Source: a bacterium | Lineage (GTDB): Bacteria > Bacteroidota > Ignavibacteria > Ignavibacteriales > Ignavibacteriaceae | Assembly (NCBI GenBank): GCA_016716565.1 | Contig: JADJWC010000002.1 | Coordinates: forward strand, 109,858-173,857 | Length of the DNA stretch: 64,000 bases | Direction of reading: 5' to 3' | Shown: positions 3,173-57,870 of the stretch, piece by piece | Numbering within the stretch: the stretch's first letter is position 1 | Layout: every line of letters starts with the position of its first letter | The notes under the pieces: generated by a model | What the model was told of the DNA's origin: nothing | The model's database searches: none | What the model saw: only the letters and a program-made list of their open reading frames with translations | Position numbers and translations under genes: made by a program

Positions 3173-5377
3173 ATGAAAGTACAAAAATATTTTTACGTTA
3201 CGAGTTTTCTAATCCTTTTAATCAGTAACTCACTCTTCGCAGATGGCTTAATCATCATTCCTCGGCCTGAGCCTTTGCCTACGCCTTATCCTTTGGAAGT
3301 TCTCTACCACCATGTTGATGTTAAAATAAACGGGAATGTAGCTGAAACTTATATCGACCAGGAATTCCACAATCCATCTGATGTAATGCTCGAAGGGTAC
3401 TACATTTTTCCGATTCCAAAAAATGCTGTAATTAAAGATTTCAGTATGGAAATAAACGGCAAAATGGTTTCAGCTGAACTACTCGATGCAAATAAAGCAC
3501 GACAAATCTATGAAGACATAGTCAGGCAAATAAAAGATCCTGCACTTCTCGAATACTCTGGACAAGGAATTTTTAAAGTAAGGATTTTTCCGATAGAACC
3601 GAGAAGCAATAAAAAAGTCAGCATTAGTTACCGGGAAGTTTTAGATTCCGATAATGATATTTATGAATACATCTATCCGCTAAACACAGAAAAATTTTCA
3701 GCAAAACCAGTGAGGAATGTTTCAGTAAAAGTCGATTTGAAAACGAATAACAAAATAAAAACCATCTATTCCCCTACTCACCCCATTGATGTTGTTCATA
3801 AAGACGCCAAACATGCAATCGTTTCATTCGAAGAAGAAAATACAAAACCGGATATCGATTTTAAATTTTATTTCAGCACGAACAATGATGAGATTGGAAT
3901 TTCTCAACTTACTTATAAATCAACTGATGAAGACGGCTACTTTTTCCTGACAGCTTCACCATCATTTAATATTGATGAGACTAAAATAGATGCAAAAGAT
4001 ATAACATTTGTTCTGGATGTGTCAGGAAGCATGGTCGGTGACAAAATGAAGCAGGCAAAACAAGCTCTTCTTTATTGTGTAAATAATTTAAATAAAGGTG
4101 ATGGTTTTAATATTATCAGATTTTCAACTGAAGCATATTCTCTATTTGGTAAGATCGAAACAGCAAGTGAATCCAATATCAAAAAAGCAGAAAAGTTTAT
4201 TGAAGAATTGAATACAGTCGGAGGAACGAATATCGAAGAAGCTCTTGGTCTTGCTTTAAAAGAAAAACCAGCAAATAACCGAACTCACCTGATAGTTTTT
4301 ATCACGGACGGCAAGCCGACTATTGGCGAAACAAATGATGATATGCTGATAAAGAAACTAGCTGACTCAAATATCAAAAACACTCGCATCTTTACATTTG
4401 GAATCGGGAATGATCTTAACACTCACCTGCTTGATAAAATTACTGAAAAAACAAAAGCCTATCGAACTTATATTTCAGAAGATGAAGACATTGAGATAAA
4501 AATTTCTAGCTTCTATGATAAAGTACAATCGCCTGTCCTCACAAATCTTTCTCTGTCATTCAGCGGAAACGTAAAAATGTTTCAGACATATCCGAAGGAT
4601 TTGCCTGATTTGTTCAAAGGTTCAAGCATACTTGTATTTGGGCGATACTCTGGTGATGGAGATTCAAAAATAACTTTGACAGGCTCGATAAAGGGTGAAA
4701 GGAGATCTTTCATATTAAACACTAATTTTTCTGATGATAATGACGAGTATGATTTCATCCCTCCTTTGTGGGCTTCAAGGAGAATTGGTTATCTGCTTGA
4801 TCAAATTCGACTTAATGGAGAAAACAAAGAATTAGTTGATGAAATAACTCACCTTGCAAGAGAGCACGGTATTGTTACTCCTTACACAAGTTATTTGATA
4901 ATGGAAGATGAGGAAATCAGGATCAGAAGAAATGAATTAACTAATCATTTCCAGACACTTCCTCCTGCTCCTGAGTTAAGAAGAAATACTTCAGAAGACT
5001 TTGATGCAATGAAAATTGAATCCGGTGCATACAGCATCAGAGCCAGTGAAGAAGTCCAGGAATTAAACAAGGCAAGTAATTACGCTGAGACAAAACAAGG
5101 ATCCGGAAGATTGAAGTACAAAGATGACTCTGGTTATGATAGAAACTTAGTCCAACAGGTAAGAAACATCCAGGGAAGAGCCATTTATCAAAGTGGAAAG
5201 TTTTGGGTTGATTCAGAATTACAAAATCAAAAAGCTAAAAATCAGAAACGAATTCAATTCAATTCAACTGAATACTTCAAGCTGCTGAAAGACAAGCCTG
5301 CGACTTCTCAATTCCTCGCACTTGGACAAAATGTTAGGTTTTATTATGACAATACTTTTTATGAGATATATGAGTGA
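3173..5377 (+). CDS. VIT domain + vWA domain protein (inter-alpha-trypsin-inhibitor-like / BatB-like)
   Basis: Signal peptide. N-terminal VIT-like region. vWA MIDAS motif FVLDVSGSM. Length 734 aa. Confidence 0.7.
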   Translation: MKVQKYFYVTSFLILLISNSLFADGLIIIPRPEPLPTPYPLEVLYHHVDVKINGNVAETYIDQEFHNPSDVMLEGYYIFPIPKNAVIKDFSMEINGKMVSAELLDANKARQIYEDIVRQIKDPALLEYSGQGIFKVRIFPIEPRSNKKVSISYREVLDSDNDIYEYIYPLNTEKFSAKPVRNVSVKVDLKTNNKIKTIYSPTHPIDVVHKDAKHAIVSFEEENTKPDIDFKFYFSTNNDEIGISQLTYKSTDEDGYFFLTASPSFNIDETKIDAKDITFVLDVSGSMVGDKMKQAKQALLYCVNNLNKGDGFNIIRFSTEAYSLFGKIETASESNIKKAEKFIEELNTVGGTNIEEALGLALKEKPANNRTHLIVFITDGKPTIGETNDDMLIKKLADSNIKNTRIFTFGIGNDLNTHLLDKITEKTKAYRTYISEDEDIEIKISSFYDKVQSPVLTNLSLSFSGNVKMFQTYPKDLPDLFKGSSILVFGRYSGDGDSKITLTGSIKGERRSFILNTNFSDDNDEYDFIPPLWASRRIGYLLDQIRLNGENKELVDEITHLAREHGIVTPYTSYLIMEDEEIRIRRNELTNHFQTLPPAPELRRNTSEDFDAMKIESGAYSIRASEEVQELNKASNYAETKQGSGRLKYKDDSGYDRNLVQQVRNIQGRAIYQSGKFWVDSELQNQKAKNQKRIQFNSTEYFKLLKDKPATSQFLALGQNVRFYYDNTFYEIYE

Positions 5378-5383
5378 ATACAC

Positions 5384-5458
5384 CTGTCATCACGAACGAA
5401 GCGAAGTTATCTAAAAGAGATTGCTTCTCCTGACTAAAGTCAGGATCGCAATGACATA
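5384..5458. repeat. TGTCAT...ATGACA palindromic repeat element, copy 1
   Basis: tgtcatcacgaacgaagcgaagttatct...agagattgcttc...cgcaatgaca. The same arms occur at 6003-6071. Confidence 0.5.
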
Positions 5459-5511
5459 GTAAGAATCACTCTCCTCTTTTCATTATATTTACCAAAAAAA
5501 ATTATATAATC

Positions 5512-5991
5512 ATGCCTGACATATCTTCCATCGTTCAAATAATACAATTAATGCTTGCACCGGGAATCATGATTTCTGCCTGCGGTTTGCTTCTTCTAGG
5601 AATGAATAACAAATACTCCCTGGTAGTAAATAGAATTCGTACTCTCAATGAAGAGAGACGAAGAGCCCTGCACAAAATGGGTGAAAAGGAATTTACTTTA
5701 CAGGAGAATGTAAGGTTTGAAAGTATCACAAAGCAACTTGAGAGACTTACATACAGAGTTGGACTTGTTCGAAATGCTGTACTGTCCTACACAATTGCAG
5801 TTGCTCTGTTTGTACTTACTTCACTTCTTATCGGAGTTGGATATCTTTTTGATATGACAAGGCTGAACAGCTTTATTACAGTTTTATTTCTATTAGGAAT
5901 GACATCCGTTTTAGCTGGAGTTCTCTTCGCTGCTTACGAAACATACAAAGGTTACGAAATCGTAAAGTACGAAGTTGAGAGTGATGAATGA
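5512..5991 (+). CDS. small integral membrane protein (possibly DUF2721 family)
   Basis: Two or three TM helices. The motif ISACGLLLLGMNNKYSLVVNRIRTL was recalled from memory and is uncertain. Confidence 0.4.
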   Translation: MPDISSIVQIIQLMLAPGIMISACGLLLLGMNNKYSLVVNRIRTLNEERRRALHKMGEKEFTLQENVRFESITKQLERLTYRVGLVRNAVLSYTIAVALFVLTSLLIGVGYLFDMTRLNSFITVLFLLGMTSVLAGVLFAAYETYKGYEIVKYEVESDE

Positions 5992-6002
5992 CTTTTCAAT
6001 GT

Positions 6003-6071
6003 CATCACGAGCGAAGCGAAGTGATCTCAAGCTTAAAGAGAGATTGCTTCACTTCGTTCGCAATGACAAAA
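6003..6071. repeat. TGTCAT...ATGACA palindromic repeat element, copy 2 (imperfect ~70-bp inverted repeat)
   Basis: tgtcatcacgagcgaagcgaagtgatctc / gagagattgcttcacttcgttcgcaatgaca. It overlaps a 73-aa ORF (5975-6196) that is spurious. Confidence 0.5.
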
Positions 6072-6081
6072 AAATGCTAAC

Positions 6082-9000
6082 TCACTTTTTCGATTCATCC
6101 GGAGCTGGTGGTACAACGATCTTCTTCCTCGGATTGTTTTTCAACTCTTCCAGTAAGACTTCCACCGCTTTTTCAAGTGAAGGATCTCTTCCCTGAACAA
6201 CCAGGTCAGCACGGTCATCGATTTCTATATCAGGATAAACACCTTCATTTTCAATAGCCCAGTTGCCATTAGTATCTAAAAATCTAAAAACAGGAATATT
6301 AATGTTGCCGCCATCCATCAAATTAGGATTTCCGGAAATTCCGATAAGTCCTCCCCAGGTTCTGGTACCGATTATTTTTCCCAATCCTTCTTTTCTGAAA
6401 TAATACGGAAATGCATCACCGCCGGAACTTGAATAACCATTTATGAGGCAAGCTTTTGGTCCGTCATGAACAAATCCCGGAACAGGAATTGGTTCAGTCC
6501 CGCGTCGTGTCCAATAGTTTAAAGTCTTTCTTGAAACTAATTCAATCATTCTATCCGGCACGAATCCTCCGCCGTTGTAACGGTCGTCTATAATTAAAGC
6601 TTCTTTGTTTGTCTGAGGATAAAAATATTTGAAGAGTTCTCTGTTCCCTTCTGTTGCGGTGTTTGGAATGTGAATGTATCCAATTTTTCCGCCTGATAAT
6701 TCATCAACCATTTTCATGCGTGAATTTACCCAATCAAGATAAAACAGGTTTTGTTCGCTCTTGACCGGTTTTACTTTTTCTTCTCTTGCACCTTCTTTCG
6801 ATGGTTTAGAATTAACAAGAAGTGTTACAACTTTATCTGCTTTGTTTTCAAGATATTTGTACGGATTTATGTCAGCAGACAACTCGTGACCATCGATAGC
6901 AATTATAAAATCTCCTTCTTTTACACTAACTCCATACTCTGTTAACGGTGATCGAAAATCTGAATGCCAGTTTTCACCTTTGAATATTTTTGTGATCTTA
7001 TAGAAACCTGATGGATCAGCTTCAAGTTCGCAGCCAAGTAATCCACCATCTATTCTTTTAACTCTTTCAAAATCTCCCCAATCAACATAAGTGTGCCCCG
7101 CACTCAACTCACCAACCAGTTCGCCAAAAATGTAATCAAGATCCATTCTGTGAGAAAGATATGGAACAAGCTGTCCATATTTCTCCCGCATTTTGTCCCA
7201 ATCATTACCATGCATTTTTTCATCATAGAACCAGTCACGCAATAAACGCCAACCGTCAACATATATCTGTTTCCATTCTTCTTTTGGGAAAATTTTTATT
7301 TCCAGATTACTAAGATCTATTCTGCCATCCGTATTCTTCTGGTTTTCTTTAACGTCAACAATTCCATATTCACCAGCTTTGGCATACAATAATTTTTTAC
7401 TATTGGATGAAACAACATAGTTACCAATATCTTCAAGCACTGTTACTTCTTTTTCATCTTCCTGGTTAAAGAATTTTAATTTTGAACCTGAGTCATCGCG
7501 ATAGATATAGAGAACTCCTTTTTCTGCCTGATGAAGCGAACCATAATTTCCTGATTTTCCGGGAAGGACTGCAATTCGATTTTCAAAATTTTCAGGATCG
7601 ATTTTTACAACTACTTTTCCGGTATCTTTTTTATTATTCTGTTCACCATTTGTTTTTTCATCATCACTTTTTGGCTGGAATAATGCCGGGACATCATTAT
7701 TCAGAGCAGCAGAATAAACTCGTGTCGGATTCGTATAAACATAATTGAATTCCCAGTTGCTGAATTTCAGATTAAAATCACGGTTTGAGAAGAAATACAG
7801 ATAATTTCCATCTCTGCTGAAAACAGGATTGAATTCATTTGTCAGATCGCTTGTAAGCTGCATAGTTTTTTTCTGGTCAATTGAATATACCCATATCGAA
7901 CTCATACGTGATTCACTTCCCTTTGTGTATGTCAGCCACTTACTGTCCGGTGACCATTGATAGTCTCTGATGTCATTATAATTGCTTTGATCAACTTCAG
8001 TAGTGCTTCCTGTATTTACATCGACATACCACAACTTCTGATTCTTATCTGAATATGCAAGCTTTTTGCTGTCAGGTGACCAAACAGGAGCAAATCGCCA
8101 GATAGTTCCGTCCTTTGTAATTTGTTTTTCTTCACCTTTGCCATCACTTGCTTTCATAAAAATTTCGTACTCGCCCTTACGGTCAGAAAGATATGCGATC
8201 CATTTTCCATCAGGAGACCATACAGGATCAATTTCTCTTATACCGGGAGTTTGCGTGATGTTTACTATCTCACCATTCTCTGCAGGAACAGTAAATACAT
8301 CTCCTCTTGCTTCAAGTAAGGCTCTTTTTCCGGTTGGAGAAATCTCAAACCAGTTTACCTGACCCTTTAAATTTTTTATATAAGGAACAGTTCCCGGAAA
8401 ATCCCCAAAAACCTTTATTTGGACTTGTTCATTTTTATTTGTTGATGGATCATATTTGTAAATATATCCCCCGTTTTCATAAACAATTTTATCATCGCCT
8501 GCACTTGGCCATAGAACATCGTAATTATCAAAATCGCTGACAGCAGAAGTTTGTTTTGAAGAAAGATCGTAAGAATAAAGATTAAGAGTACCAGTTCTGT
8601 CAGATGTAAAATAAATTTTTTCTCCAACCCACATCGGCTGATTATCAGTTCCAAGCCAGTCGGTGATTTTTTCTGTGGTATTATTTTTTAAGTCGTAAAT
8701 CCAAACATCCTGTGCACGACCGCCGCGGTATCTTTTCCAAGTTCGCCATTCTCTTTCAATCGGAGTGTAAACCATTTTTGTTCCATCAGGAGATAACATT
8801 CCTCCTCCGCCTTCAGGAATTTGTAATGGAGTTTCAAATCCACCATCAACCGGAACGAGAAAATATTTTCCCATTCTTTCACCCCAGGGAAGTCGGTTCC
8901 CACGAAAAAGAACATTCTTTCCATCCGGTGTCCAGTCGAGAACCTGGTAATCAAATCCACCGCGCGGCGGCATAACTCCAACATCATTGTAGTAAGTTAA

Positions 9001-14202: not shown

Positions 14203-17200
14203 CTATTTAGCGTATTCGGAAGGGCTGACATTAAAATACTTTGTGAATGCTTTGCTGAAATGTGACGGGCTGTTGTAACCGACTTCGTATGCAACCTGGG
14301 TCACGGATAATCTTTTCTCAATTAGCATCTCGGCTGCACGTTTTAACCTGTAAGCTCGTATAAATTCACCCGGCGCCTGCCCTGTTATAGCCTGTATTTT
14401 TCTGTGAAGCTGCATACGGCTTACAAATAATTCTTTTGCAAATTGTTCAGTATCGTATTCAACATCATCGAGATGTTTTTCAATAATGTCGTATGCTTTT
14501 TTAAGAAACTCATCATCAAGAGGATTTGTTGTTACTCTTTCCGGTCGTGGATGAATATCCTTACCGAATTTTTCTTTTAGTCTCCTCCTTTGCTCGATAA
14601 GATTTTTAATTCGTGTAAGAAGCTCTTTTGCATCAAATGGTTTTATAAGGTAATCATCAGCGCCGGTTTCAAGCCCTTCTATTTTATTATCGTGTGATGC
14701 TTTAGCAGTTAGAAGGATAACAGGTATATGTGAAGTGAGAAATTCTGTTTTAATTATTCTGCAGAATTCTATCCCATCCATTTCTGGCATCATTACATCA
14801 CTCACTATCAGATCAGGCATAATTTCTTTTGCTTTCTCAAGTCCCTGCTGACCGTTAACAGCTTCTTCAACTTTATAATGGCTATTGAGAACGTCTTTAA
14901 TGTATTCACGCACATCACGGTTATCTTCAACAAGCAGAATCAGATTTTTATTTTCTCTTAGGTCGTTACCAATATCTCCAGTTACCAACTCAGTTTTCTT
15001 CGTAAATACAGATTCATCAATGTAAATATTTTCGAGTTCCTGAACAGAGCTCTCAACTATTTCATCATCTTTCAGATGATTTCTTCCCAACGGAAATTCA
15101 ACAATAAACTCACTGCCGCTTGTCCCGACTTTGTCGGGATCGCCGACTTTACTATTCACACGAATACTTCCGTTGTGCAATTCGATGAGTTCCTTAATTA
15201 AAGCGAGACCTAATCCTGAACCTTCATATTCTCTTGTCTGTGAACTGTCAACCTGGTAAAACCTGTCAAACAGTTTCGGCAGTTCATCTTCGGATATTCC
15301 AATGCCGGTGTCACGAACAGAAATACAAATAAATTCTGTTACCTTTGTTTGACCCACCCCTCGCCCCTCCAATGGAGGGGATAACGATCTTTTTGAAGTC
15401 CCCTCCTCCGGAGGGGATTTAGGGGTGGGTGAATAGATACCCACCGTTATACTCCCACCTTCAGGCGTAAACTTGAATGCATTCGAAAGAAGGTTAGTGA
15501 GAATTTTTATCATCATTTCTTTGTCGAAGTAAAGCTCAATGGTATCTTGTTCCGATTCTATCTTAAGATTAATGTCTTTCCGCTCTGCAAGAGATTCAAA
15601 AGACATTACAATTCCTTTTACAAAAGGAACGATATTACTCTTCGATGCTTTAATTTTCAGCTTGCCTGCTTCCAGTCTGGAAAGATCAAGAAGCTGGTTT
15701 ATAAGATTCATCAGGCGGTGAGCATTTCTCCTGATAATTCCCGTAAGCTTTTCAATTTCATCTGCCGGAGTATCGGAAGTTAGTTTATCAATCGGACCAA
15801 GAATCAAAGTAAGCGGTGTTCTGAACTCGTGAGAAATATTTGCAAAGAAACGTGATTTCATTTTATCTGTTTCTTCTCTTTCCTGCAATTTCACTTCATC
15901 AAGCTTAACCTGGTTTTTTAATCTTAGTCGGTTCATTTCGTATCGTCTCACTGCATAAAAAATGCTTAGCACGAATAAAATGTAAAACGTGTATGCCCAC
16001 CATGTTGCCCAAAAAGGCGGCGAAATTATAATCTTAATTGATGCACCATCTTCATTCCAGACACCATCGAGATTACAGGCCTTAACTTTGAAAACATATT
16101 CGCCTGCATCAAGATTTGTATAAGTTGCATTTCTTTGAGTTCCTGCATCAATCCATTCTTCTTCATATCCTTCCAACTTGTACATATACTTGTTTCTTGA
16201 AGGATCTGCATAATGCAATCCTACATAATCAAATCGAAGATCGTTTTCATCATAAGAAAGATTTAATTCTTTAACGTTCGTTATCAATCCATCATACTCC
16301 AATTTTTCATCAGGTCTGTTAAAGAGAGACACATTGCTGATGACAACTTGCGGAGGAACCGGATCGTCTTTTATATTATCTGGATGAAACAGAATAAATC
16401 CATCAGCAGTACCAAACAACATTTCTCCATTTGAATTTTTAAAAGCACTATTGACTGCAAACCTATCGCCTTCAAAATTTTCTGAGGTCGTGTAGTTTTT
16501 TACAGTATGCGTAGAGGTATTCAACATTGATAATCCGTAATCTGTACCAATCCATAAATTGCCGTTGTTATCTTCTAATATCGACCTAACCAAATTATTA
16601 CCTAGCTTAATGGTAGAAATAAAGGATTCTGAATCTCTGTCAAATAAAGCAATACCTTGATTATAAGTCCCGACCCAGAGATTTCCACACTGATCTTCAT
16701 AAATTGCAAGTACAACAAGTTCATTACCATTAGCAAACCTAAATGATTTAAATGAATTAGTGGATGGATCAAATTTATTGAGCCCTGCATTACCTTGACT
16801 TGCGACCCAAATAAAACCATCACGAGCACGAATAATACCTTCCACTCTGTTATCACCAATACCTTGCTTATCATTTTCATCTGGAAGATATTTCAGGAAT
16901 TTACCTGTTTTCTTATTGAATTTATTTATACCGCCACCACGTGTTGTAATCCAGAGGATATCATCACCATCTGGCAACATACTACGAATTATGTTATTAC
17001 TGATTGATTCAGGATTATCAGGATTATTTGAATAGAATTTCAACTTATTACTTGCCAGATCAAATCTTACTATTCCCCTATAAGATGTACCAAGCCAGAA
17101 AACTCCAGATTTCTCTCTACAAATAAACGTTACTGTATTATCATACTTATTATTATCAAATTTGAAATTCTTAAATTCACCTGATTTTCTATTAAAACTA

Positions 17201-17979
17201 TTGAGGCCGAGCTTAGTGCCAAACCATATTGTCCTTGTTGAGTCTTCGATAATACACTTAACTACTTTGGAATCTTTATCAGCACTTTTATTAATAGCTC
17301 GATTAAAACGTTTAAACTTAAATTTATTCCCATCCCATTTATTCAATCCACTGAAATAAGAACCGATCCAAATTATCCCGGTTTTATCTTTGAAAATTGA
17401 TTGTAATAAATTGGGGTTACTAATACTAAACTGATATTCCGGATGATATTCAATGAGTTTAAAATTCTCACTAGCTGGATCAAAAATCACAAGACCGGAG
17501 TACTCTATAGATCCAAATATTAACCAGAGAAATCCATGATCGTCTTCGACCATTTTCCGAACATAATTATCATTTCTATAATTTATTGAGGGAGTTAGTT
17601 GATAGTGTTTAGAATTTAAACTTCGCAAGTCTAATTTTGTTACTCCCAATGAATGTCCAATCCATAATATTCCATCTCTTGCTTGGAGAAAAGAATTGAT
17701 TGTACCAATGGATGAAATCAGATTATTAATACGATCATCTTCTGTAAGGAGTTCTTTCTCCTTATCATAAATTAATATCCTGTTTTCAGTACCTACGTAA
17801 ATATTTCCCGATAACTTATCATAGGAAATAGAACTAACCCCTTTCGAAAGAACAGATTTATTATAATAAATACGACTGAATTTTTCCTTAACTATATTAA
17901 ATAAGTATAAACCACTATTAGCTCCAATTAAAAAATTGCCATCTTTTACCTGAAGTATACAATTTACCCAGTTTGGCAC
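14203..17979 (-). CDS. hybrid two-component system sensor histidine kinase/response regulator with AraC-type HTH (Bacteroidetes HTCS); N-terminal 64 codons are in another frame (see 17994-18188)
   Basis: Y_Y_Y/two-component-regulator propeller repeats. HisKA H-box HEFRTPLT. HATPase_c. REC (LLVEDN...DLIVSDVMMP). C-terminal AraC HTH. Carries an 80-bp repeat insertion at 15352-15431. Confidence 0.85.
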   Translation of the reverse strand: MPNWVNCILQVKDGNFLIGANSGLYLFNIVKEKFSRIYYNKSVLSKGVSSISYDKLSGNIYVGTENRILIYDKEKELLTEDDRINNLISSIGTINSFLQARDGILWIGHSLGVTKLDLRSLNSKHYQLTPSINYRNDNYVRKMVEDDHGFLWLIFGSIEYSGLVIFDPASENFKLIEYHPEYQFSISNPNLLQSIFKDKTGIIWIGSYFSGLNKWDGNKFKFKRFNRAINKSADKDSKVVKCIIEDSTRTIWFGTKLGLNSFNRKSGEFKNFKFDNNKYDNTVTFICREKSGVFWLGTSYRGIVRFDLASNKLKFYSNNPDNPESISNNIIRSMLPDGDDILWITTRGGGINKFNKKTGKFLKYLPDENDKQGIGDNRVEGIIRARDGFIWVASQGNAGLNKFDPSTNSFKSFRFANGNELVVLAIYEDQCGNLWVGTYNQGIALFDRDSESFISTIKLGNNLVRSILEDNNGNLWIGTDYGLSMLNTSTHTVKNYTTSENFEGDRFAVNSAFKNSNGEMLFGTADGFILFHPDNIKDDPVPPQVVISNVSLFNRPDEKLEYDGLITNVKELNLSYDENDLRFDYVGLHYADPSRNKYMYKLEGYEEEWIDAGTQRNATYTNLDAGEYVFKVKACNLDGVWNEDGASIKIIISPPFWATWWAYTFYILFVLSIFYAVRRYEMNRLRLKNQVKLDEVKLQEREETDKMKSRFFANISHEFRTPLTLILGPIDKLTSDTPADEIEKLTGIIRRNAHRLMNLINQLLDLSRLEAGKLKIKASKSNIVPFVKGIVMSFESLAERKDINLKIESEQDTIELYFDKEMMIKILTNLLSNAFKFTPEGGSITVGIYSPTPKSPPEEGTSKRSLSPPLEGRGVGQTKVTEFICISVRDTGIGISEDELPKLFDRFYQVDSSQTREYEGSGLGLALIKELIELHNGSIRVNSKVGDPDKVGTSGSEFIVEFPLGRNHLKDDEIVESSVQELENIYIDESVFTKKTELVTGDIGNDLRENKNLILLVEDNRDVREYIKDVLNSHYKVEEAVNGQQGLEKAKEIMPDLIVSDVMMPEMDGIEFCRIIKTEFLTSHIPVILLTAKASHDNKIEGLETGADDYLIKPFDAKELLTRIKNLIEQRRRLKEKFGKDIHPRPERVTTNPLDDEFLKKAYDIIEKHLDDVEYDTEQFAKELFVSRMQLHRKIQAITGQAPGEFIRAYRLKRAAEMLIEKRLSVTQVAYEVGYNSPSHFSKAFTKYFNVSPSEYAK
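15352..15431. repeat. GC-rich nested palindromic repeat inserted in-frame inside the HTCS HATPase domain
   Basis: cccacccct cgcccctccaatggagggg ... cccctcctccggagggg ... aggggtggg. It encodes the extra loop SPTPKSPPEEGTSKRSLSPPLEGRGVGQTKVT between GGSITVGIY and EFICISVRDTGIGI. Related to the repeats at 55137, 55657 and 57754. Confidence 0.6.
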
Positions 17980-17993
17980 TACACTAGATGTGT

Positions 17994-18188
17994 CTATAGA
18001 TAACCAAGATGATCCTGGAAAATTGACAACACAGTATTTTCAGGTAATCCGTCAGCTAATGTAAAGTGTTCAAAGATTGGTTCCGGCCAGTTTGTGTCCG
18101 CATAATTCCCCTGCGAATGAATTGTGAAATTCACCAGTAAGATAAAAAGAGAAGCCAGTCTTCCAACAGAAATAATAATTGAATTCAA
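17994..18188 (-). other. out-of-frame N-terminal segment of the HTCS (signal peptide + first propeller motif). The frame junction lies near 17990-18000.
   Basis: MNSIIISVGRLASLFILLVNF...FTLADGLPENTVLSIFQDHLGYL* is a typical HTCS N-terminus. The downstream ORF continues as WLSIDTSS... in the -1 frame. Confidence 0.75.
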
Positions 18189-29123: not shown

Positions 29124-29198
29124 TACTTTATTGTCTGTGTGGTAGGACTCGAACCTACATTTTCCCGGCTCCAAACCGGCACGGATAACCAATTCCCG
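29124..29198 (-). tRNA. tRNA-Pro (anticodon UGG)
   Basis: Hand-folded cloverleaf. Acceptor CTGTGTG/CACACAG. T-arm GTAGG-TTCGAGT-CCTAC. Anticodon loop TTTGGAG. Confidence 0.7.
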
Positions 29199-29253
29199 TC
29201 ACACACAGATATAATTTAGTAAACGTATTATCTATTAAAAATTCCAATTATAA

Positions 29254-29324
29254 AATTTTATTGCGTGACGTGTGGGATTTGAACCCCGACTCCTGATAGA
29301 CAGTCAGGTGTGTTTCCGTTACAC
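29254..29324 (-). tRNA. tRNA-Asp (anticodon GUC)
   Basis: Anticodon arm CCTGA-CTGTCTA-TCAGG. T-loop TTCAAAT. Acceptor/T-stem register is ambiguous by hand. Confidence 0.6.
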
Positions 29325-29354
29325 TACACATCACTTTTATAGATATTCTATTAA

Positions 29355-29428
29355 TATTTAATTGTCCCACCGATAGGATTCGAACCTACATCATTTCGGT
29401 TAAAAGCCGAAAGCATTGCTCCTTTATG
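29355..29428 (-). tRNA. tRNA-Lys (anticodon UUU)
   Basis: D-arm GCAT-AAAGGAGCA-ATGC. Anticodon arm TTCGG-CTTTTAA-CCGAA. T-loop TTCGAAT. Confidence 0.8.
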
Positions 29429-29442
29429 CTACGGTGGAATAA

Positions 29443-29515
29443 TGTCTTTAAGTACTCTCTGCAGGAATCGAACCCACATCTAACTGCTTAGAAGACAGCT
29501 GCATTATCCTTTATG
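29443..29515 (-). tRNA. tRNA-Arg (anticodon UCU)
   Basis: Acceptor GCTCTCT/AGAGAGT. Anticodon loop CTTCTAA. T-loop TTCGATT. Confidence 0.7.
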
Positions 29516-29520
29516 CTAAG

Positions 29521-29592
29521 AGAGCGTTGGAATCGTTATAAGGATTTGAACCTTAATCCCCCGACTCGTAAGCGGGTATCTTTTCCATTAGA
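29521..29592 (-). tRNA. tRNA-Arg (anticodon ACG)
   Basis: Acceptor GTCGTTA/TAACGAT. Anticodon loop TTACGAG. T-arm TAAGG-TTCAAAT-CCTTA. Confidence 0.7.
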
Positions 29593-29595
29593 CGA

Positions 29596-29668
29596 TAACG
29601 ACTTGAGCCAACGCAAGGATTCGAACCCTGTTCTCCGGTTTACAAAACCGGTGCATCAACCTGTAATG
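29596..29668 (-). tRNA. tRNA-Thr (anticodon UGU), aberrant acceptor stem
   Basis: Anticodon arm CCGGT-TTTGTAA-ACCGG is perfect. Acceptor 5' GCCTTCG vs 3' CGTTGGC gives two adjacent U:U mismatches. The 5' end sits inside the perfect palindrome AATGCCTTCGAAGCATT. Confidence 0.55.
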
Positions 29669-29673
29669 CTTCG

Positions 29674-29757
29674 AAGGCATTCGTACAAGTAGAAGGATTC
29701 GAACCTTCAAGCCCTCAAGGGCAGTAGTTTCTAAGACTACCGTGTATACCAATTCCA
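29674..29757 (-). tRNA. tRNA-Leu (anticodon UAG), class II with long variable arm
   Basis: Anticodon arm GTAGT-CTTAGAA-ACTAC. Variable hairpin GCCC-TTGA-GGGC. T-arm GAAGG-TTCGAAT-CCTTC. Confidence 0.8.
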
Positions 29758-29763
29758 CCATAC

Positions 29764-29835
29764 TTGCATTCAGGGTGTGAGCTAAGATTTGAACTTAGTC
29801 CTATTGGGTCACAGCCAATTATGCTGCCATTACAC
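29764..29835 (-). tRNA. tRNA-His (anticodon GUG) with G-1; acceptor has two internal mismatches
   Basis: Anticodon arm ATTGG-CTGTGAC-CCAAT. Extra 5' G pairs with C73. Acceptor 5' GTGTTTG vs 3' CTCACAC gives U:C and U:U mismatches. Confidence 0.6.
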
Positions 29836-29908
29836 CACAAACACCATAATAATGTCGTTAAAGGAAATGAATACCTATCTTAAAAATTTTTAAATCAATC
29901 TATCTAAG

Positions 29909-29982
29909 AACGATAAAGTCCTACGGGTAGGATTCGCACCCACTATCTCCCGGATATAAGCCGGGTGCATTTACTAATTATG
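29909..29982 (-). tRNA. tRNA-Ile (anticodon UAU), atypical: no GG in D-loop, T-loop TGCGAAT
   Basis: Acceptor CCTACGG/CCGTAGG is perfect. Anticodon arm CCCGG-CTTATAT-CCGGG. D-loop AATTAGTAA. Confidence 0.6.
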
Positions 29983-29983
29983 C

Positions 29984-30055
29984 TTCCGTAGGGTAGCGGG
30001 TATTGGATTCGAACCAATGACCTTCAGCTTATGAAACTGATGAGCTGCCGCTGCT
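29984..30055 (-). tRNA. tRNA-Met or tRNA-Ile2 (anticodon CAU; elongator type)
   Basis: Acceptor GGCGGGT/ACCCGCT. D-arm GAGC-AGCGGCA-GCTC. Anticodon loop TTCATAA. Lacks the initiator features (C1:A72 mismatch, GGG/CCC anticodon stem). Confidence 0.75.
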
Positions 30056-30065
30056 CAAACCCGCC

Positions 30066-30140
30066 AAATGATTAGTGGAAAGGGTAGGAATCGAACCCAC
30101 GCAGTCAACGGGCTTCAACCGCTTGCTCTACCTGCTGAGC
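30066..30140 (-). tRNA. tRNA-Phe (anticodon GAA)
   Basis: Acceptor GGAAAGG/CCTTTCC. D-arm GCTC-AGCAGGTAGA-GC. Anticodon loop TTGAAGC. Confidence 0.85.
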
Positions 30141-30147
30141 TACCTTT

Positions 30148-30219
30148 CCATATTTTGCAGTCCCGGCAGGATTTGAACCTACATCTTTGGGTTCAAAGCC
30201 CAATGTGCTTACCATTGCA
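30148..30219 (-). tRNA. tRNA-Gln (anticodon UUG)
   Basis: Anticodon arm TTGGG-CTTTGAA-CCCAA. D-arm GTGC-AATGGTAA-GCAC. T-loop TTCAAAT. Confidence 0.8.
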
Positions 30220-30223
30220 CCAC

Positions 30224-30299
30224 AGAACTATTGAGTCGGTAAAGGGAGTTGAACCCTCACTTCAAGTTTGGAAGACTTACGTGCTGGTTCCGTTAAACA
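30224..30299 (-). tRNA. tRNA-Gly (anticodon UCC), enlarged D-loop
   Basis: Acceptor GTCGGTA/TACCGAC is perfect. Anticodon loop CTTCCAA. D-region is 21 nt. Confidence 0.7.
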
Positions 30300-30322
30300 C
30301 TATACCGACGGATTGAAAAATT

Positions 30323-30393
30323 GATTCTCTGCTGAACAGGCAGGACTCGAACCTGCATCATTCCGGTTAACAGCCGGGCGCTTCACCATTGAG
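30323..30393 (-). tRNA. tRNA-Asn (anticodon GUU)
   Basis: Acceptor TGAACAG/CTGTTCA is perfect. Anticodon loop CTGTTAA. T-arm GCAGG-TTCGAGT-CCTGC. Confidence 0.75.
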
Positions 30394-30414
30394 CTACTGT
30401 TCAATTAATTTTAT

Positions 30415-32838: not shown

Positions 32839-32914
32839 GTGCATGAGCGGGAATCGAACCCGCGACCTATAGATCATTAGTCTATTGCTCTTCCAATTGA
32901 GCTATCATTGTGCA
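32839..32914 (-). ncRNA. aberrant tRNA-like RNA (tRNA mimic or pseudogene). Canonical D- and T-arms, acceptor stem with a 3-nt bulge, anticodon loop CUAAUGA (formally AAU with G37).
   Basis: D-arm TAGCTCAATTGGAAGAGCA. T-arm GCGGG-TTCGATT-CCCGC. 3' TCATGCA-C. 5' TGCA[CAA]TGA. Sits ~100 nt downstream of a TGGCAC -24 element. Confidence 0.5.
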
Positions 32915-34826: not shown

Positions 34827-34899
34827 AGCTGGTGAACGGATTCGAACCGCCGACCGGCTGATTACAAATCAGCTGCTCTACCAGCTGAGCTACACCAGC
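34827..34899 (-). tRNA. tRNA-Thr (anticodon UGU), canonical
   Basis: Acceptor GCTGGTG/CACCAGC is perfect. D-arm GCTC-AGCTGGTAGA-GC. Anticodon arm GCTGA-TTTGTAA-TCAGC. T-loop TTCGAAT. Confidence 0.85.
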
Positions 34900-48450: not shown

Positions 48451-48476
48451 AAAAGCCCTCTTCGAGAGGGCTTTTT
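48451..48476. terminator. bidirectional rho-independent terminator
   Basis: aaaagccctcttcgagagggcttttt between convergent genes. Confidence 0.6.
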
Positions 48477-51150
48477 AGTTTTGGTTGATGTAGTTCTGAA
48501 TTTCCTTATTAGTCTCTTCTATGATTTTATTAAACCTTTCTATTCTCGCATTTATATTCACCCAATCTTTATTTTTCCCTGAAAGTTCGATCGCATAAGC
48601 TTCATCACCAACTTGTATCGCACCTATTGAATAGCTCGAACCTTTAATTGAGTGAACAGTCTCAACTATTTTCGCCAGGTCGTGATTTGCCAGCAGTTCA
48701 TTAAGGTGATTGTATTTATCATCCAGATCTGATAGAAAAGACAGGAGCAGATCTTTTTCGAATTCCTTATCTCCAAGACTAACATTTTTCAACCTGTCCT
48801 TGTCCAGAACAGGACTATGCTTGTGCTGAGGCTCATTAACGACTGAAGTATTTTCGTCTTTACGGATATCAAGCAACACATCTATTTTTTTTACAAGTTC
48901 CTGACCGGATACCGGCTTTGAAATATAATCTGTCATCCCGGCATTCAAACACTTTTCTTTATCACCCATAAGTGCATGAGCAGTGAGTGCAATAATAGGA
49001 ATATCACGTTTGGAATTTGGGAATGAACGGATTTTTTCCGTTGCAGTAAACCCATCTACGTTCGGCATTTGTAAATCCATAAGAACAAGATGATAGCTAC
49101 CGTTTGATACTGCATTCACAGCTTCCATTCCATCGCATACCGCAGAAACATTAAAACCAAAGGTGCTTAATATTTTCATGGTTACTTTTTGGTTTATGAG
49201 ATTGTCTTCTGCAAGAAGAATATTAAATTTTTCACGTTTCTTTTTAAATCCGTTTCCACGGAAGCTTTCAATACTGCCGAGAAACTGATTTTCAAATGTT
49301 TCTTTTTCAATCTGACCTTCAGTTAATGCATCACGCTCGGTCTGAATCCTGCAATTGATTGTAAAGCTGAAAGAGCTTCCTTCACCTTCTTTACTGGTAA
49401 CACTAATTTTACCGCCGAGAAGTTCCACATATTCCTTACTTATTACCAATCCTAGTCCCGTACCATGAGCGAATGATTCATAAAAATCACCTAACTGAGA
49501 ATAAGGTTTGAACAATTCTTTTATTTTCGATTCAGGAATTCCGATACCTGTGTCAGTAACAGAAATTGAAACTTCGACTTCATCATTGCTTTTTCTTTTT
49601 GTTTTTGCAGCTATTATGATTTCACCATCCGATGTGAATTTCACGGCATTGTTCAATAAGTTGATCATTATCTGCCGGAGCTTTACCATATCGCCAATCA
49701 ATAAAGAATCAATTTCTGCAGGAATTTCCTTTTTGATCCTTACATTTTTCTCGTTCGCTTTTAATGATACAACGGAAATAGATTGATCTACCACATTAAT
49801 CAAATTGAATCTGACTTTTTCTACTTTGGCTTTTCCGGCTTCAATTTTTGAAAGGTCGAGGACCGAGTTTATAATATCCAGTAATGATTCAGATGATTGA
49901 CGTGCATTTGTTGAAAAGAATTTTAATTCCTCTTCACTTGAATATGCACCGGCTTCAATCAAGGAGAGAAATCCTAAAATTCCGTTTATTGGAGTTCTGA
50001 TTTCGTGGCTGAGATTTGCCAGGAATTTACTCTTTGTTCCGCTGATCCTGATAGCTTCCTTAGCGAGTTTTTCATTCTTCTCTTTTTCCTCTTTCAACAT
50101 TTTAGCAACTAATTTTCTGTCTTCTTCTATTTTAACCTGTTCAGTGATATCATAAATGTTACCTTCGAAATAAATATTTCCAAATTCATCTTTAACAACT
50201 CGGTCATTCAGTCGCACTACGGCAATTGATCCGTCTTTCTTTTTTAATCTTACTCTGTAATTCTCAACTTTACTATTTGTCATCAATTCTTTTATAAGTT
50301 TATTCCTGTCTTCCTGATCAGCATAAAGTTCTTTAATATTTTTTTCCATTAACTCAACACTGTTAGAATAGCCGAGTATTTTTGTAAAAGTCTGATTGAT
50401 AGTGAGCAATTTACCTTCAGCGGTTGATTGGAATATTCCTTCAAGTGAGTTATCAATAATCGCTCTGTATTTCTGATCCGATTGTTCTATTTGAAGATTT
50501 CGTTCGGCTAGAAAAAAACGCATCCTGAAATTGACTGCACAGGCAACAATAGATACCACGCTGAGGCACAAAACAAATATCACAGATTCTTTCATATTTG
50601 GAAGGAAGTAAATGCTGTGATTGTTGAAAAGTATTGAGGCGGCGAAAGTCAGGTTATAATATATTGCTACAATTATCTGGTGTTTAATCTCCCAGCTTAA
50701 AAAAAGTGCGGAAGAAAATATCATCAAACCAACTATACTGGAATTAACCAGAATTGTTGACGGTAATAGATAAATCATCAAGCCGGATGAGATGATAATG
50801 CTTAGTAATAGTAAATGAATTAGAAAAATCGATCTTTTAACCGATGTGCCATTACTGGATGTTGCAAGTACCAAAAATGCTATCAGTGTTGAAGAGAGTC
50901 TGATAAAGTAAATCTCAATTGAATTCTCCGGAAAGTATCGCACTTCTAATATCATAGCGAATGATCCGAACAGTGCTACCAGCACAGCCATAATACGCAG
51001 CGGTACATAAAGCAGGCGTTCAAGTTGCTCTATCAACTCCTTGTATTTCTCTTTTGAGAGCGGGAATTTATTCTTAAAAATAAATTCAAAAATTGAAGAG
51101 CTTATAGCCGAGGTAAATTGAGAGCCTTTATTTATATTTATTGAGTTCAA
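48475..51150 (-). CDS. membrane-bound hybrid sensor histidine kinase (multi-TM sensor, PAS, HisKA, HATPase, REC, Hpt)
   Basis: H-box LSHEIRTPINGI. GTGLGL. Receiver ILLAEDN...DLQMPNVDG. C-terminal HPt (HSIKGSS). Confidence 0.8.
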   Translation of the reverse strand: MNSININKGSQFTSAISSSIFEFIFKNKFPLSKEKYKELIEQLERLLYVPLRIMAVLVALFGSFAMILEVRYFPENSIEIYFIRLSSTLIAFLVLATSSNGTSVKRSIFLIHLLLLSIIISSGLMIYLLPSTILVNSSIVGLMIFSSALFLSWEIKHQIIVAIYYNLTFAASILFNNHSIYFLPNMKESVIFVLCLSVVSIVACAVNFRMRFFLAERNLQIEQSDQKYRAIIDNSLEGIFQSTAEGKLLTINQTFTKILGYSNSVELMEKNIKELYADQEDRNKLIKELMTNSKVENYRVRLKKKDGSIAVVRLNDRVVKDEFGNIYFEGNIYDITEQVKIEEDRKLVAKMLKEEKEKNEKLAKEAIRISGTKSKFLANLSHEIRTPINGILGFLSLIEAGAYSSEEELKFFSTNARQSSESLLDIINSVLDLSKIEAGKAKVEKVRFNLINVVDQSISVVSLKANEKNVRIKKEIPAEIDSLLIGDMVKLRQIMINLLNNAVKFTSDGEIIIAAKTKRKSNDEVEVSISVTDTGIGIPESKIKELFKPYSQLGDFYESFAHGTGLGLVISKEYVELLGGKISVTSKEGEGSSFSFTINCRIQTERDALTEGQIEKETFENQFLGSIESFRGNGFKKKREKFNILLAEDNLINQKVTMKILSTFGFNVSAVCDGMEAVNAVSNGSYHLVLMDLQMPNVDGFTATEKIRSFPNSKRDIPIIALTAHALMGDKEKCLNAGMTDYISKPVSGQELVKKIDVLLDIRKDENTSVVNEPQHKHSPVLDKDRLKNVSLGDKEFEKDLLLSFLSDLDDKYNHLNELLANHDLAKIVETVHSIKGSSYSIGAIQVGDEAYAIELSGKNKDWVNINARIERFNKIIEETNKEIQNYINQN

Positions 51151-55136: not shown

Positions 55137-55254
55137 TCCCCTCCTCTCCGAGGAGGGGACGAAGGGGTGGTGCGACAAAGTTATTTCCGAATTTTTAACT
55201 AAACACCACCCCGTCCGGCAACTACCGGACACCCCTCCTCAGAGAGGAGGGGAT
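55137..55254. repeat. GC-rich ~118-bp triple-hairpin palindromic repeat (MITE/REP-like), copy B
   Basis: cccctcctctccgaggaggggacgaaggggtgg...caccaccccgtccggcaactaccggacacccctcctcagagaggagggga. Confidence 0.65.
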
Positions 55255-55268
55255 AACGTTTTATTTTA

Positions 55269-55628
55269 TTATTCTTTTCTGAAATGGCTTTTTATTTCTT
55301 TAAGCACTTTATCAAGATTTAATAATACTTCCTGATTTTCAAATCTGATTACTTTTATTCCTTCAGCTTCAATCTGCTTTGTTCTATTCTCGTCATCTTT
55401 AATTGCTTTTTCGTCGAAGTGAAAATCTCCATCGAGTTCAATAACCAGTTTTTCTTCCGGACAGTAAAAATCAACAATAAAATTTTTTACGCTTGACTGT
55501 CTTCTGAATTTTCTTCCTTCAAACTGACTGTTCTTCAAGTATCCCCACAGAAATGCTTCAGCTTGGGTTGCATTGTTTCGAAGATGTTTTCTTTTATCCT
55601 TCAGATTCTTTCTGTTAAAAGTCTTCAT
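55269..55628 (-). CDS. DUF559 (Vsr-like endonuclease fold) protein
   Basis: FIVDFYCPEEKLVIELDGDFHFDE...IKVIRFENQEV. Flanked by GC-rich repeats on both sides. Confidence 0.7.
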   Translation of the reverse strand: MKTFNRKNLKDKRKHLRNNATQAEAFLWGYLKNSQFEGRKFRRQSSVKNFIVDFYCPEEKLVIELDGDFHFDEKAIKDDENRTKQIEAEGIKVIRFENQEVLLNLDKVLKEIKSHFRKE

Positions 55629-55656: not shown

Positions 55657-55774
55657 TCCCCTCCTCTCCGAGGAGGGGATGAAGGGGTGGAGGGAGAAAA
55701 AGTAGTTATTGAGTTTTAAGTATAAGCACCACCCCGTCACTTCGTGACACCCCTCCTCATAAATGAGGAGGGGA
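55657..55774. repeat. GC-rich triple-hairpin repeat, copy C (central hairpin changed compensatorily to gtcacttcgtgac)
   Basis: cccctcctctccgaggaggggatgaaggggtggaggg...caccaccccgtcacttcgtgacacccctcctcataaatgaggagggga. Confidence 0.65.
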
Positions 55775-57753: not shown

Positions 57754-57870
57754 CCCCTCCTGCCAGAGGAGGGGACGAAGGGGTGGAGGGAGAAAAATCA
57801 TTATCGTGTTTTTAACTAAACACCACCCCGTCCGGCAATTGCCGGACACCCCTCCTCAAAGAGGAGGGGA
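57754..57870. repeat. GC-rich triple-hairpin repeat, copy D
   Basis: cccctcctgccagaggaggggacgaaggggtggaggg...caccaccccgtccggcaattgccggacacccctcctcaaagaggagggga. About 90% identical to copy B, with paired changes in stems. Confidence 0.65.

Follow-up and report, generated by a model that had tools for sequence, protein, structure and literature searches.

How did a GC-rich palindrome come to be translated within the ATP-binding domain of a sensor kinase? The question is raised by a 64,000-nt stretch of contig JADJWC010000002.1 from a bacterium of the Ignavibacteriaceae (the window), in which a minus-strand open reading frame (ORF) of 1258 aa at 14203-17979, beginning with a GTG at 17979, encodes an AraC-type hybrid two-component sensor (HTCS) kinase and contains a palindromic segment at 15349-15433. 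In the explanation that we consider probable, the segment would be a non-coding element, miniature and palindromic, that entered the gene in frame, at a β-hairpin tip in the ATP-binding domain. With two CCCCTCC/GGAGGGG hairpins between its outer arms, CCCACCCC and GGGGTGGG, the element would have landed between the N-box strand and the G1 box, and selection would retain only the copies that lie in open frames. Related loci show that this putative element belongs to a repeat family with intergenic copies as well, and that the same codon position has been hit repeatedly, both by this family and by unrelated palindromic families.

The whole insert is absent from a positional orthologue, P0006 (P numbers denote homologues and L numbers loci; the insert and its parts are given without strand). 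Within it lies a 77-nt core, CCCACCCC...GGGGTGGG, at 15353-15429, whose left outer arm, CCCACCCCT (15353-15361), pairs with the right outer arm, AGGGGTGGG (15421-15429), a pattern with 2 matches compared to 0.11 expected. The longer versions of these arms, TTGACCCACCCCT (15349-15361) and AGGGGTGGGTGAA (15421-15433), are 13 nt each and 92% complementary. Between them are inner hairpin 1, CCCCTCC-AAT-GGAGGGG (CCCCTCCAATGGAGGGG, 15364-15380), and inner hairpin 2, CCCCTCC-TCC-GGAGGGG (CCCCTCCTCCGGAGGGG, 15400-15416), separated by 19 AT-rich bases; hairpin 2 and the ATTTA-GGGGTGG that follows it make up one unit of a widespread hairpin-plus-GGGGTGG type. The GC content is 60% in 15352-15431, whereas it is 36.5% in the window and 35.7% in the host gene. 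The pattern CCCCTCC-N1-12-GGAGGGG occurs 8 times in the window and GGAGGGGAYNNAGGGGTGG 4 times, with 0 expected in each case, and the further matches are intergenic repeats at 55138, 55658, and 57754. An earlier note on this DNA had described a segment of ~60% GC, nested inverted repeats, and modules shared with these intergenic repeats, all of which the measurements bear out; the similarity also extends beyond GC content, as judged from the motif counts and from an intergenic copy at another locus (L142) that is 79% identical to the window copy. A 103-nt stretch containing the insert has folding energies of -54.3 kcal/mol (z = -5.0) when treated as RNA and -26.5 kcal/mol (z = -5.7) when treated as DNA, with two small hairpins within the outer stem or a single long hairpin as alternative folds. 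We infer a net insertion of 81 nt, or 27 codons.

The directly upstream gene, which is FTCD-like and encodes 609 aa, shows 93% identity to its counterpart in L005 and 92% to that in L008; this identifies the corresponding kinases of two close relatives, P0006 and P0002, as positional orthologues. At the loop in question P0006 is empty, with a short turn only (VN-QESNEK-IK), and in P0002 an unrelated palindrome, which encodes IPSPSGRGMSNLSTTALAKVEGQGEG (IPSPSGRGMS...GQGEG), occupies the codon at which the window insert lies. The alignment of orthologues for which the earlier note had called thus finds the insert absent in one close relative and replaced by a different one in the other, and shows the segment to be an insertion rather than an ancestral loop. 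Copies with the same 77-nt core length are present in the kinases L009/P0010 and L132 and between genes at L142, and are 79-85% identical to the window copy. Among element-carrying kinases with only 37-67% protein identity near the insert, identity at third codon positions is 67-82% for the insert and 29-45% for its flanks, and third-codon identity at identical residues is 0.67-0.94 in the insert compared to 0.34-0.54 in the flanks; the insert and its hosts have therefore not diverged in step. The window copy is probably young, given its perfect arms and hairpins.

We considered whether the segment might instead be a lineage-specific loop extension of ancestral origin, consisting of ordinary coding sequence that is GC-rich and self-complementary by chance. 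Loops of comparable length are found here in many homologues, as such an origin would have it, but the positional orthologues of close relatives are empty or carry unrelated sequence, the synonymous positions are unlike those of the flanks, equal-length intergenic copies exist, and the chance expectation of the motifs is about zero. We rejected this explanation, which we regard as very unlikely, on the third-codon pattern and the positional orthologues. The earlier note had held that similar-length loops of unrelated nucleotide sequence in distant relatives would refute an insertion. Such loops do occur, but every insert tested was itself structured (z = -2.5 to -9.5 relative to shuffled sequences), whereas empty loops were not (z = +0.9 and -0.6). 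As independent palindromic insertions in their own right, the relatives' loops strengthen rather than refute the mobile-element reading. Misjoining of a repeat into the gene during assembly or binning was also weighed, since the source is a metagenome-assembled genome and the gene also shows an unusual deletion at its 5' end. However, the insert preserves the frame exactly, and the same element is found at the same codon in independent JGI, ENA, and Logan assemblies, on which ground an artefact was rejected as extremely improbable.

In the host ORF, Pfam searches identified Reg_prop, Y_Y_Y, HisKA (E = 8.7e-18), HATPase_c (E = 4.8e-24, residues 820-965), Response_reg, and HTH_AraC domains, and the HATPase_c match covers 146 residues compared to 108 profile positions. 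The kinase has an identical match in a protein from a bacterial metagenome-assembled genome. Its nearest relatives are from Ignavibacteriales, and it is only 66-74% identical to its positional orthologues; the kinase family therefore evolves fast. As the earlier note had stated, the minus strand reads without a stop through the insert (...GGSITVGIY-SPTPKSPPEEGTSKRSLSPPLEGRGVGQTKVT-EFICISVRDTGIGI...), and the insert peptide, SPTPKSPPEEGTSKRSLSPPLEGRGVG, lies in HATPase_c between strand SITVGIY, which follows the N box, and strand EFICISVR, which leads to the G1 box. The H, N, G1, F, and G2 boxes, invariant in the homologue alignment, are all conserved. In an AlphaFold model of host residues 690-990 (mean predicted local distance difference test [pLDDT] score 84), the 33 model residues 161-193 are coil with pLDDT of ~48-71, the strands on either side (154-160 and 194-201) are confident, and the remainder of the domain scores above 90. 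Structurally, the model matches HK853 DHp-CA chains best (E = 7.5e-23). Thus, the ~27 extra Pro/Gly/Ser-rich residues are predicted to form a floppy loop that leaves the catalytic boxes unaltered, at a β-hairpin tip that we take, from the fold, to face away from the ATP lid. The earlier note's proposal, a mobile element that entered a coding sequence and is tolerated as a loop, is supported by the absence of the insert from P0006, the unrelated palindrome in P0002, the intergenic copy L142, and the coil in the model. Structure prediction, which it had suggested as a check on surface exposure, shows a low-confidence coil between confident strands. Plain translational read-through of the 81-nt insert would be the economical reading. 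An intein was dismissed, as 81 nt is far too small to encode one, and no intron-like features were seen.

The host gene is not intact, contrary to the earlier note, because an out-of-frame deletion of ~72 codons removes its leader. A detached N-terminal remnant corresponding to orthologue residues 1-46 is encoded in a different frame at about 17997-18134 on the minus strand and is closed by a TAG. The next orthologue position to align, directly after this remnant, is residue 119, so that ~72 codons are missing and the frame is shifted. As a result, the annotated 1258-aa ORF is without the N-terminal leader and the first propeller blades, and of the complete HTCS architecture (leader, periplasmic sensor, HisKA, HATPase_c, REC, and HTH_AraC) the leader and the ~72 codons are cut off. 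The gene is a truncated HTCS member or a pseudogene, and the window copy appears to sit in a gene already decaying at its 5' end.

To what extent is this loop special? Among 117 classifiable homologues of the kinase, 51 have an insert at this loop and 66 have none. The 51 inserts comprise 8 of the query family (3 with a flipped interior), 6 of type c, 17 of a HAELVSAS...KQVRND type, and 20 others; at least three unrelated palindrome families are found at this loop. The insertion codon, 17 residues after the N-box Asn, is common to the query family, its flipped form, type a, and type c, and repeat-like inserts are rare elsewhere in the ~1400-residue homologue alignment. When 12 genes (~49 kb) were scanned for 80-nt windows that fold at or below -28 kcal/mol, the hits were this loop in 9 genes and one linker, compared to a median of -11. 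The linker belongs to a second hybrid kinase on its contig (L009:11225-15403), which also has a type c palindrome at the ATP-domain loop; the stretch between its ATPase and receiver domains (gene nt 3290-3380; PVILTPLERGKNL...) folds at -29.8 kcal/mol and is the sole hit of the scan outside the loop. The hotspot family includes a member with a GAF sensor, L132.

As a control, we used the window's other hybrid kinase (48475-51150; PAS, HisKA, HATPase, REC, and Hpt domains) and its 120 best homologues, which are from the same lineage and 52-100% identical. This family had 0/117 inserts, and the segment from the N box to the G1 box was 38 residues long in 117/117 sequences. Because the control family is without inserts, the hotspot is specific to the HisKA-HATPase-REC-AraC kinase family, and the idea that kinase loops of this lineage carry such inserts in general was rejected.

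Some insert peptides look nested. HAE-PALPAGR-FISAS can be set beside HAEFISAS, and GRGMS-NLSTTALAKVE-GQGEG beside GRGMS-K-GQGEG, in peptides from homologues P0007, P0009, P0038, P0042, and P0049 and from P0002 and P0057. These pairs suggest later insertions into, or expansions of, earlier inserts. The HAE-type palindrome had no further copies in the 24 kb around P0003 (L007), where only protein-repeat DNA was found.

We infer that the hotspot reflects more than tolerance of extra residues in a loop. Candidate causes would be targeting by the local sequence, use of a first insert as a landing pad, and spread between paralogues by recombination through the N box and G1 box; tolerance combined with relaxed constraint is also a candidate. 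An explanation that refines insertion of a miniature element, and does not exclude it, is colonisation that is targeted or driven by recombination, through a sequence or structure specific to the family, through a landing pad, or through copying between paralogues via the conserved N-box and G1-box DNA, with gene conversion or break repair as the route, as in homing; we regard this as a serious possibility, if one that probably does not hold. The codon shared by the query family with its flipped form and with types a and c speaks for it, as do the location of 9 of the 10 strongly folding windows at this loop, the lack of any insert in another kinase family of the same lineage, flanks of four other carrier kinases that hold no intergenic copy, the nested look of some insert peptides, and a nuclease gene that travels with the repeat family. 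However, no conversion tract is visible and the codons adjacent to the inserts are not clearly homogenised, each unrelated element family would require the same targeting, and the control family may merely be more constrained. One example of a possible target, a conserved PEGG coding motif, GAAGGTGG, that resembles the element tail, GAAGGGGTGG, is a weak resemblance.

Returning to insertion of a non-coding element, we asked which of its readings are found. Three of the six reading frames of the element are open, and reading the sequences of the kinases revealed two of these. Frame 1 (PTPKSPPxEG...SPPxEGRGVG) is used in the window, P0114, P0081, P0035, and L132; frame 2, in which the interior is inverted (PTPRPSKGGD...GGDLGVG), is used in P0010, P0016, and P0060/L137; frame 3 is open and was not seen among the kinases. 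That only three frames are open and two of them are seen in kinases suggests that selection filters the surviving copies. Searching for proteins that resemble the element's three open-frame translations gave no candidates. The window copy (coding strand, 15343-15439) and the P0010 copy (L009:7917-8005) share the flanks TCA...TCAA and have opposite interiors, both open; these could be two independent insertions or the product of an inversion between the arms.

Such a pair of orientations, in frame between the same flanks, would also be expected if the hairpin were kept for a role at the DNA or RNA level, as a translational pause, an attenuator, or an invertible or recombinogenic switch between two versions of the loop. 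The conservation of third positions and GC-rich codons within an AT-rich gene, the very stable fold (-54 kcal/mol), and a terminator-like ACTTTTAAA after hairpin 1 in other carriers favor a role of this type. We nevertheless consider it improbable: the site is taken by unrelated sequences in some homologues and is empty in many that look functional, the copies in P0114, P0081, and P0035 decay at differing positions, and no recombinase is linked. Moreover, a terminator scan of the window did not call the insert as a terminator-like site, leaving premature termination in the window copy unsupported, and Rfam searches at gathering scores found tRNAs only, with no structured-RNA family at the insert; a permissive Rfam search returned only noise resembling microRNA-precursor hairpins, far below threshold.

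Longer relatives of the element lie between genes elsewhere in the window. The first, of 115 nt on the plus strand (55138-55252; -75.7 kcal/mol, z = -9.3), begins 11 nt past the stop codon of a SpoIIE-domain gene and adjoins a minus-strand gene (55269-55628) for a 119-aa DUF559 endonuclease, Vsr-like and of the PD-(D/E)XK type (PF04480, E = 1.7e-32). It consists of hairpin-GGGGTGG, an AT-rich spacer, CCACCCC, a middle hairpin, and a hairpin. A second 115-nt relative (55658-55773, plus strand) lies on the opposite side of the DUF559 gene, which thus has these repeats on both sides and may be the partner gene of their family; a third, solo relative (57754-57869, plus strand) lies between two genes with secretion-tail domains. 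The intergenic repeats contain the same modules as the insert in reverse order (hairpin-GGGGTGG, spacer, CCACCCC-hairpin).

To follow the family beyond the window, we used its ~30-nt unit, CCCCTCC-loop-GGAGGGG-N2-5-AGGGGTGG, to obtain loci from a genome collection (L010-L129) and from metagenomes (L130-L249); all counts refer to the matches listed, and the totals are at least these. The listed matches were from Alphaproteobacteria, Okeania cyanobacteria, Planctomycetaceae, Bacteroidota, candidate phyla, and one archaeal metagenome-assembled genome, with no Ignavibacteria among those listed from the genome collection. Most listed copies were single and intergenic (~90% of the 124 metagenomic units listed), with the consensus AAAAGT-hairpin-ATTTA-GGGGTGG, and units were often arranged as inverted pairs ~100 nt apart. 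Of the 240 loci listed, all obtained with the unit pattern and nothing else, 17 had a DUF559 gene; 17 of 18 DUF559 hits had a unit within ~180 nt, and in 11 listed loci a unit in the CCACCCC-to-hairpin orientation was ~40 nt or less from the DUF559 stop codon. L019, L020, L173, L197, L215, and L233 are among the loci with a DUF559 gene and a unit, and units sometimes lie on both sides of the gene. In L173 there are two DUF559 genes with 99% identity over 300 nt, and the one studied more closely has a longer element on either side, whose arms and hairpins are those of the kinase insert. Because longer versions of the element flank DUF559 genes, one of them in the window, the repeat family may have been propagated together with, or by, these nuclease genes. 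The association may be that of a repeat-and-enzyme pair, or the unit may be the terminator of the gene. We know of no transposase activity in a DUF559 nuclease, and a literature search found no report of DUF559-associated repeats. That the kinase loop is a true integration hotspot, to which elements are directed or copied from paralogues, and that the cross-phyla unit is a non-autonomous partner of DUF559 genes, is a combination that we put forward tentatively and with some doubt.

Units are also translated in other ORFs. A unit and another repeat-like stretch lie in frame in a RecG-like helicase ORF (4339-6561, minus strand), before IGTHALIQ (unit at L201:5401-5429), and in-frame copies are therefore not confined to kinases. 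At L180:7243-7596 and its flanks, a DUF559 domain with three units is in frame within a 1200-aa ORF that is N6-methylase- or type IIG-like, and one unit interrupts the DUF559 domain itself.

Several observations weigh against insertion of a mobile element in the form proposed here. The codon that precedes the left arm in kinases is TCA, TTA, AAA, or ACA, whereas several intergenic copies have a TGA before the left arm, which would be a stop in the kinase phase, so that a repair mutation or a variant end would be needed in the kinases; this difference suggests that selection filters or repairs the copies. The window copy, P0010, L132, and L142 gave no consistent target-site duplication: TGA/TGA (plus strand) at the window copy and TCA/TCA at P0010 are candidates, with which L132 and L142 do not fit, and an element of 77 or 79 nt plus a short duplication is not a multiple of three. 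In ~100 kb flanking four other carrier kinases, the hairpin of the query family had no intergenic copy, which leaves a local source for each insertion unproven and would allow for spread within the gene family. The control kinases are a conserved single-copy orthologue group, and the contrast with them could partly reflect stronger purifying selection and not targeting. Because the host gene is truncated, tolerance of the window copy says little on function. Finally, the mobility proposed for the element is a deduction from the comparison of sequences.

The closest known parallel is provided by the palindromic elements of Rickettsia, short palindromes that lie in frame in coding genes and are translated as extra peptide segments, which are thought to be located where they do not disturb fold or function (PMC10969869). 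The window insert likewise is a palindromic repeat that is in frame and translated within an otherwise conserved protein; the resemblance is one of function, with no sequence relationship. The Rickettsia elements are ~150 bp and are scattered over many unrelated genes, whereas the element described here is ~80 bp, GC-rich in an AT-rich host that is Ignavibacteria-like, and shares one codon position of one kinase family with several unrelated families, and its unit occurs across phyla and travels with DUF559 genes. A search of the literature found nothing relevant on in-frame miniature elements in histidine kinases or on Ignavibacteria repeats. REP, REPIN, and BIME repeats are short GC-rich hairpins, mostly intergenic and often just past stop codons, that cluster around a RAYT partner gene. 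The units here are similar in being single or in inverted pairs that form one long hairpin, around a small partner gene. Unlike REP/REPIN repeats, however, they have a DUF559 PD-(D/E)XK nuclease gene as this partner, lack a conserved head of the GTAG type, are also found inside coding sequence, and are common across phyla, whereas REPs are generally species-specific. No RAYT gene (IS200/IS605-type) was present among the ORFs examined, in a Pfam scan that covered part of the window.

Bacterial transposable elements of the miniature inverted-repeat type (MITEs), such as ERIC, Correia, and BOX, are small and non-coding, have inverted ends and many copies, and occasionally form in-frame fusions (PMC10969869). 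The element here is also small and non-coding, with arms of 9-13 nt, dispersed copies of equal length (L009, L132, and L142), and three relatives in the window. Its longer relatives differ from MITEs in flanking a nuclease gene and not an insertion sequence, and no clean target duplication could be defined. To our knowledge, the element has no transposase-bearing parent. It would work like a MITE or a REPIN by analogy, and is not filed as a member of either class because two features that define them, a cleanly delimited target duplication and a partner gene for a transposase or RAYT, were not found. Fungal mitochondria contain GC-cluster and double-hairpin elements, which are likewise double hairpins of high GC content in AT-rich genomes and in some cases lie in frame in genes; host, sequence, and context differ from those here, and the likeness is an analogy only.

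The family-specific hotspot, the 5' truncation, and the DUF559 link go beyond the earlier note. In-frame colonisation by selfish palindromes is known mainly from Rickettsia, with hits scattered over many genes, whereas here nearly half of one regulator family carries a loop insert and none was seen in a second kinase family of these bacteria. What is new and of interest is the family-specific hotspot and the link to DUF559, the mechanisms proposed for both being tentative. The kinase loop is a natural test bed for separating insertion preference from selection, its inserts show repeats creating length variation in a catalytic domain, and it offers a well-mapped permissive site for extra sequence in kinase ATP-binding domains that is useful for engineering. 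A hairpin unit that accompanies DUF559 genes from Alphaproteobacteria to Bacteroidota could give a role to a very common domain and, if the association is true, would constitute a new repeat-and-enzyme pair comparable to REP/RAYT and able to remodel proteins in frame.

Elsewhere in the window, the Rfam search located 14 tRNA genes within ~1.3 kb at 29134-30403 on the minus strand, and two more at 32843-32908 and 34827-34899.

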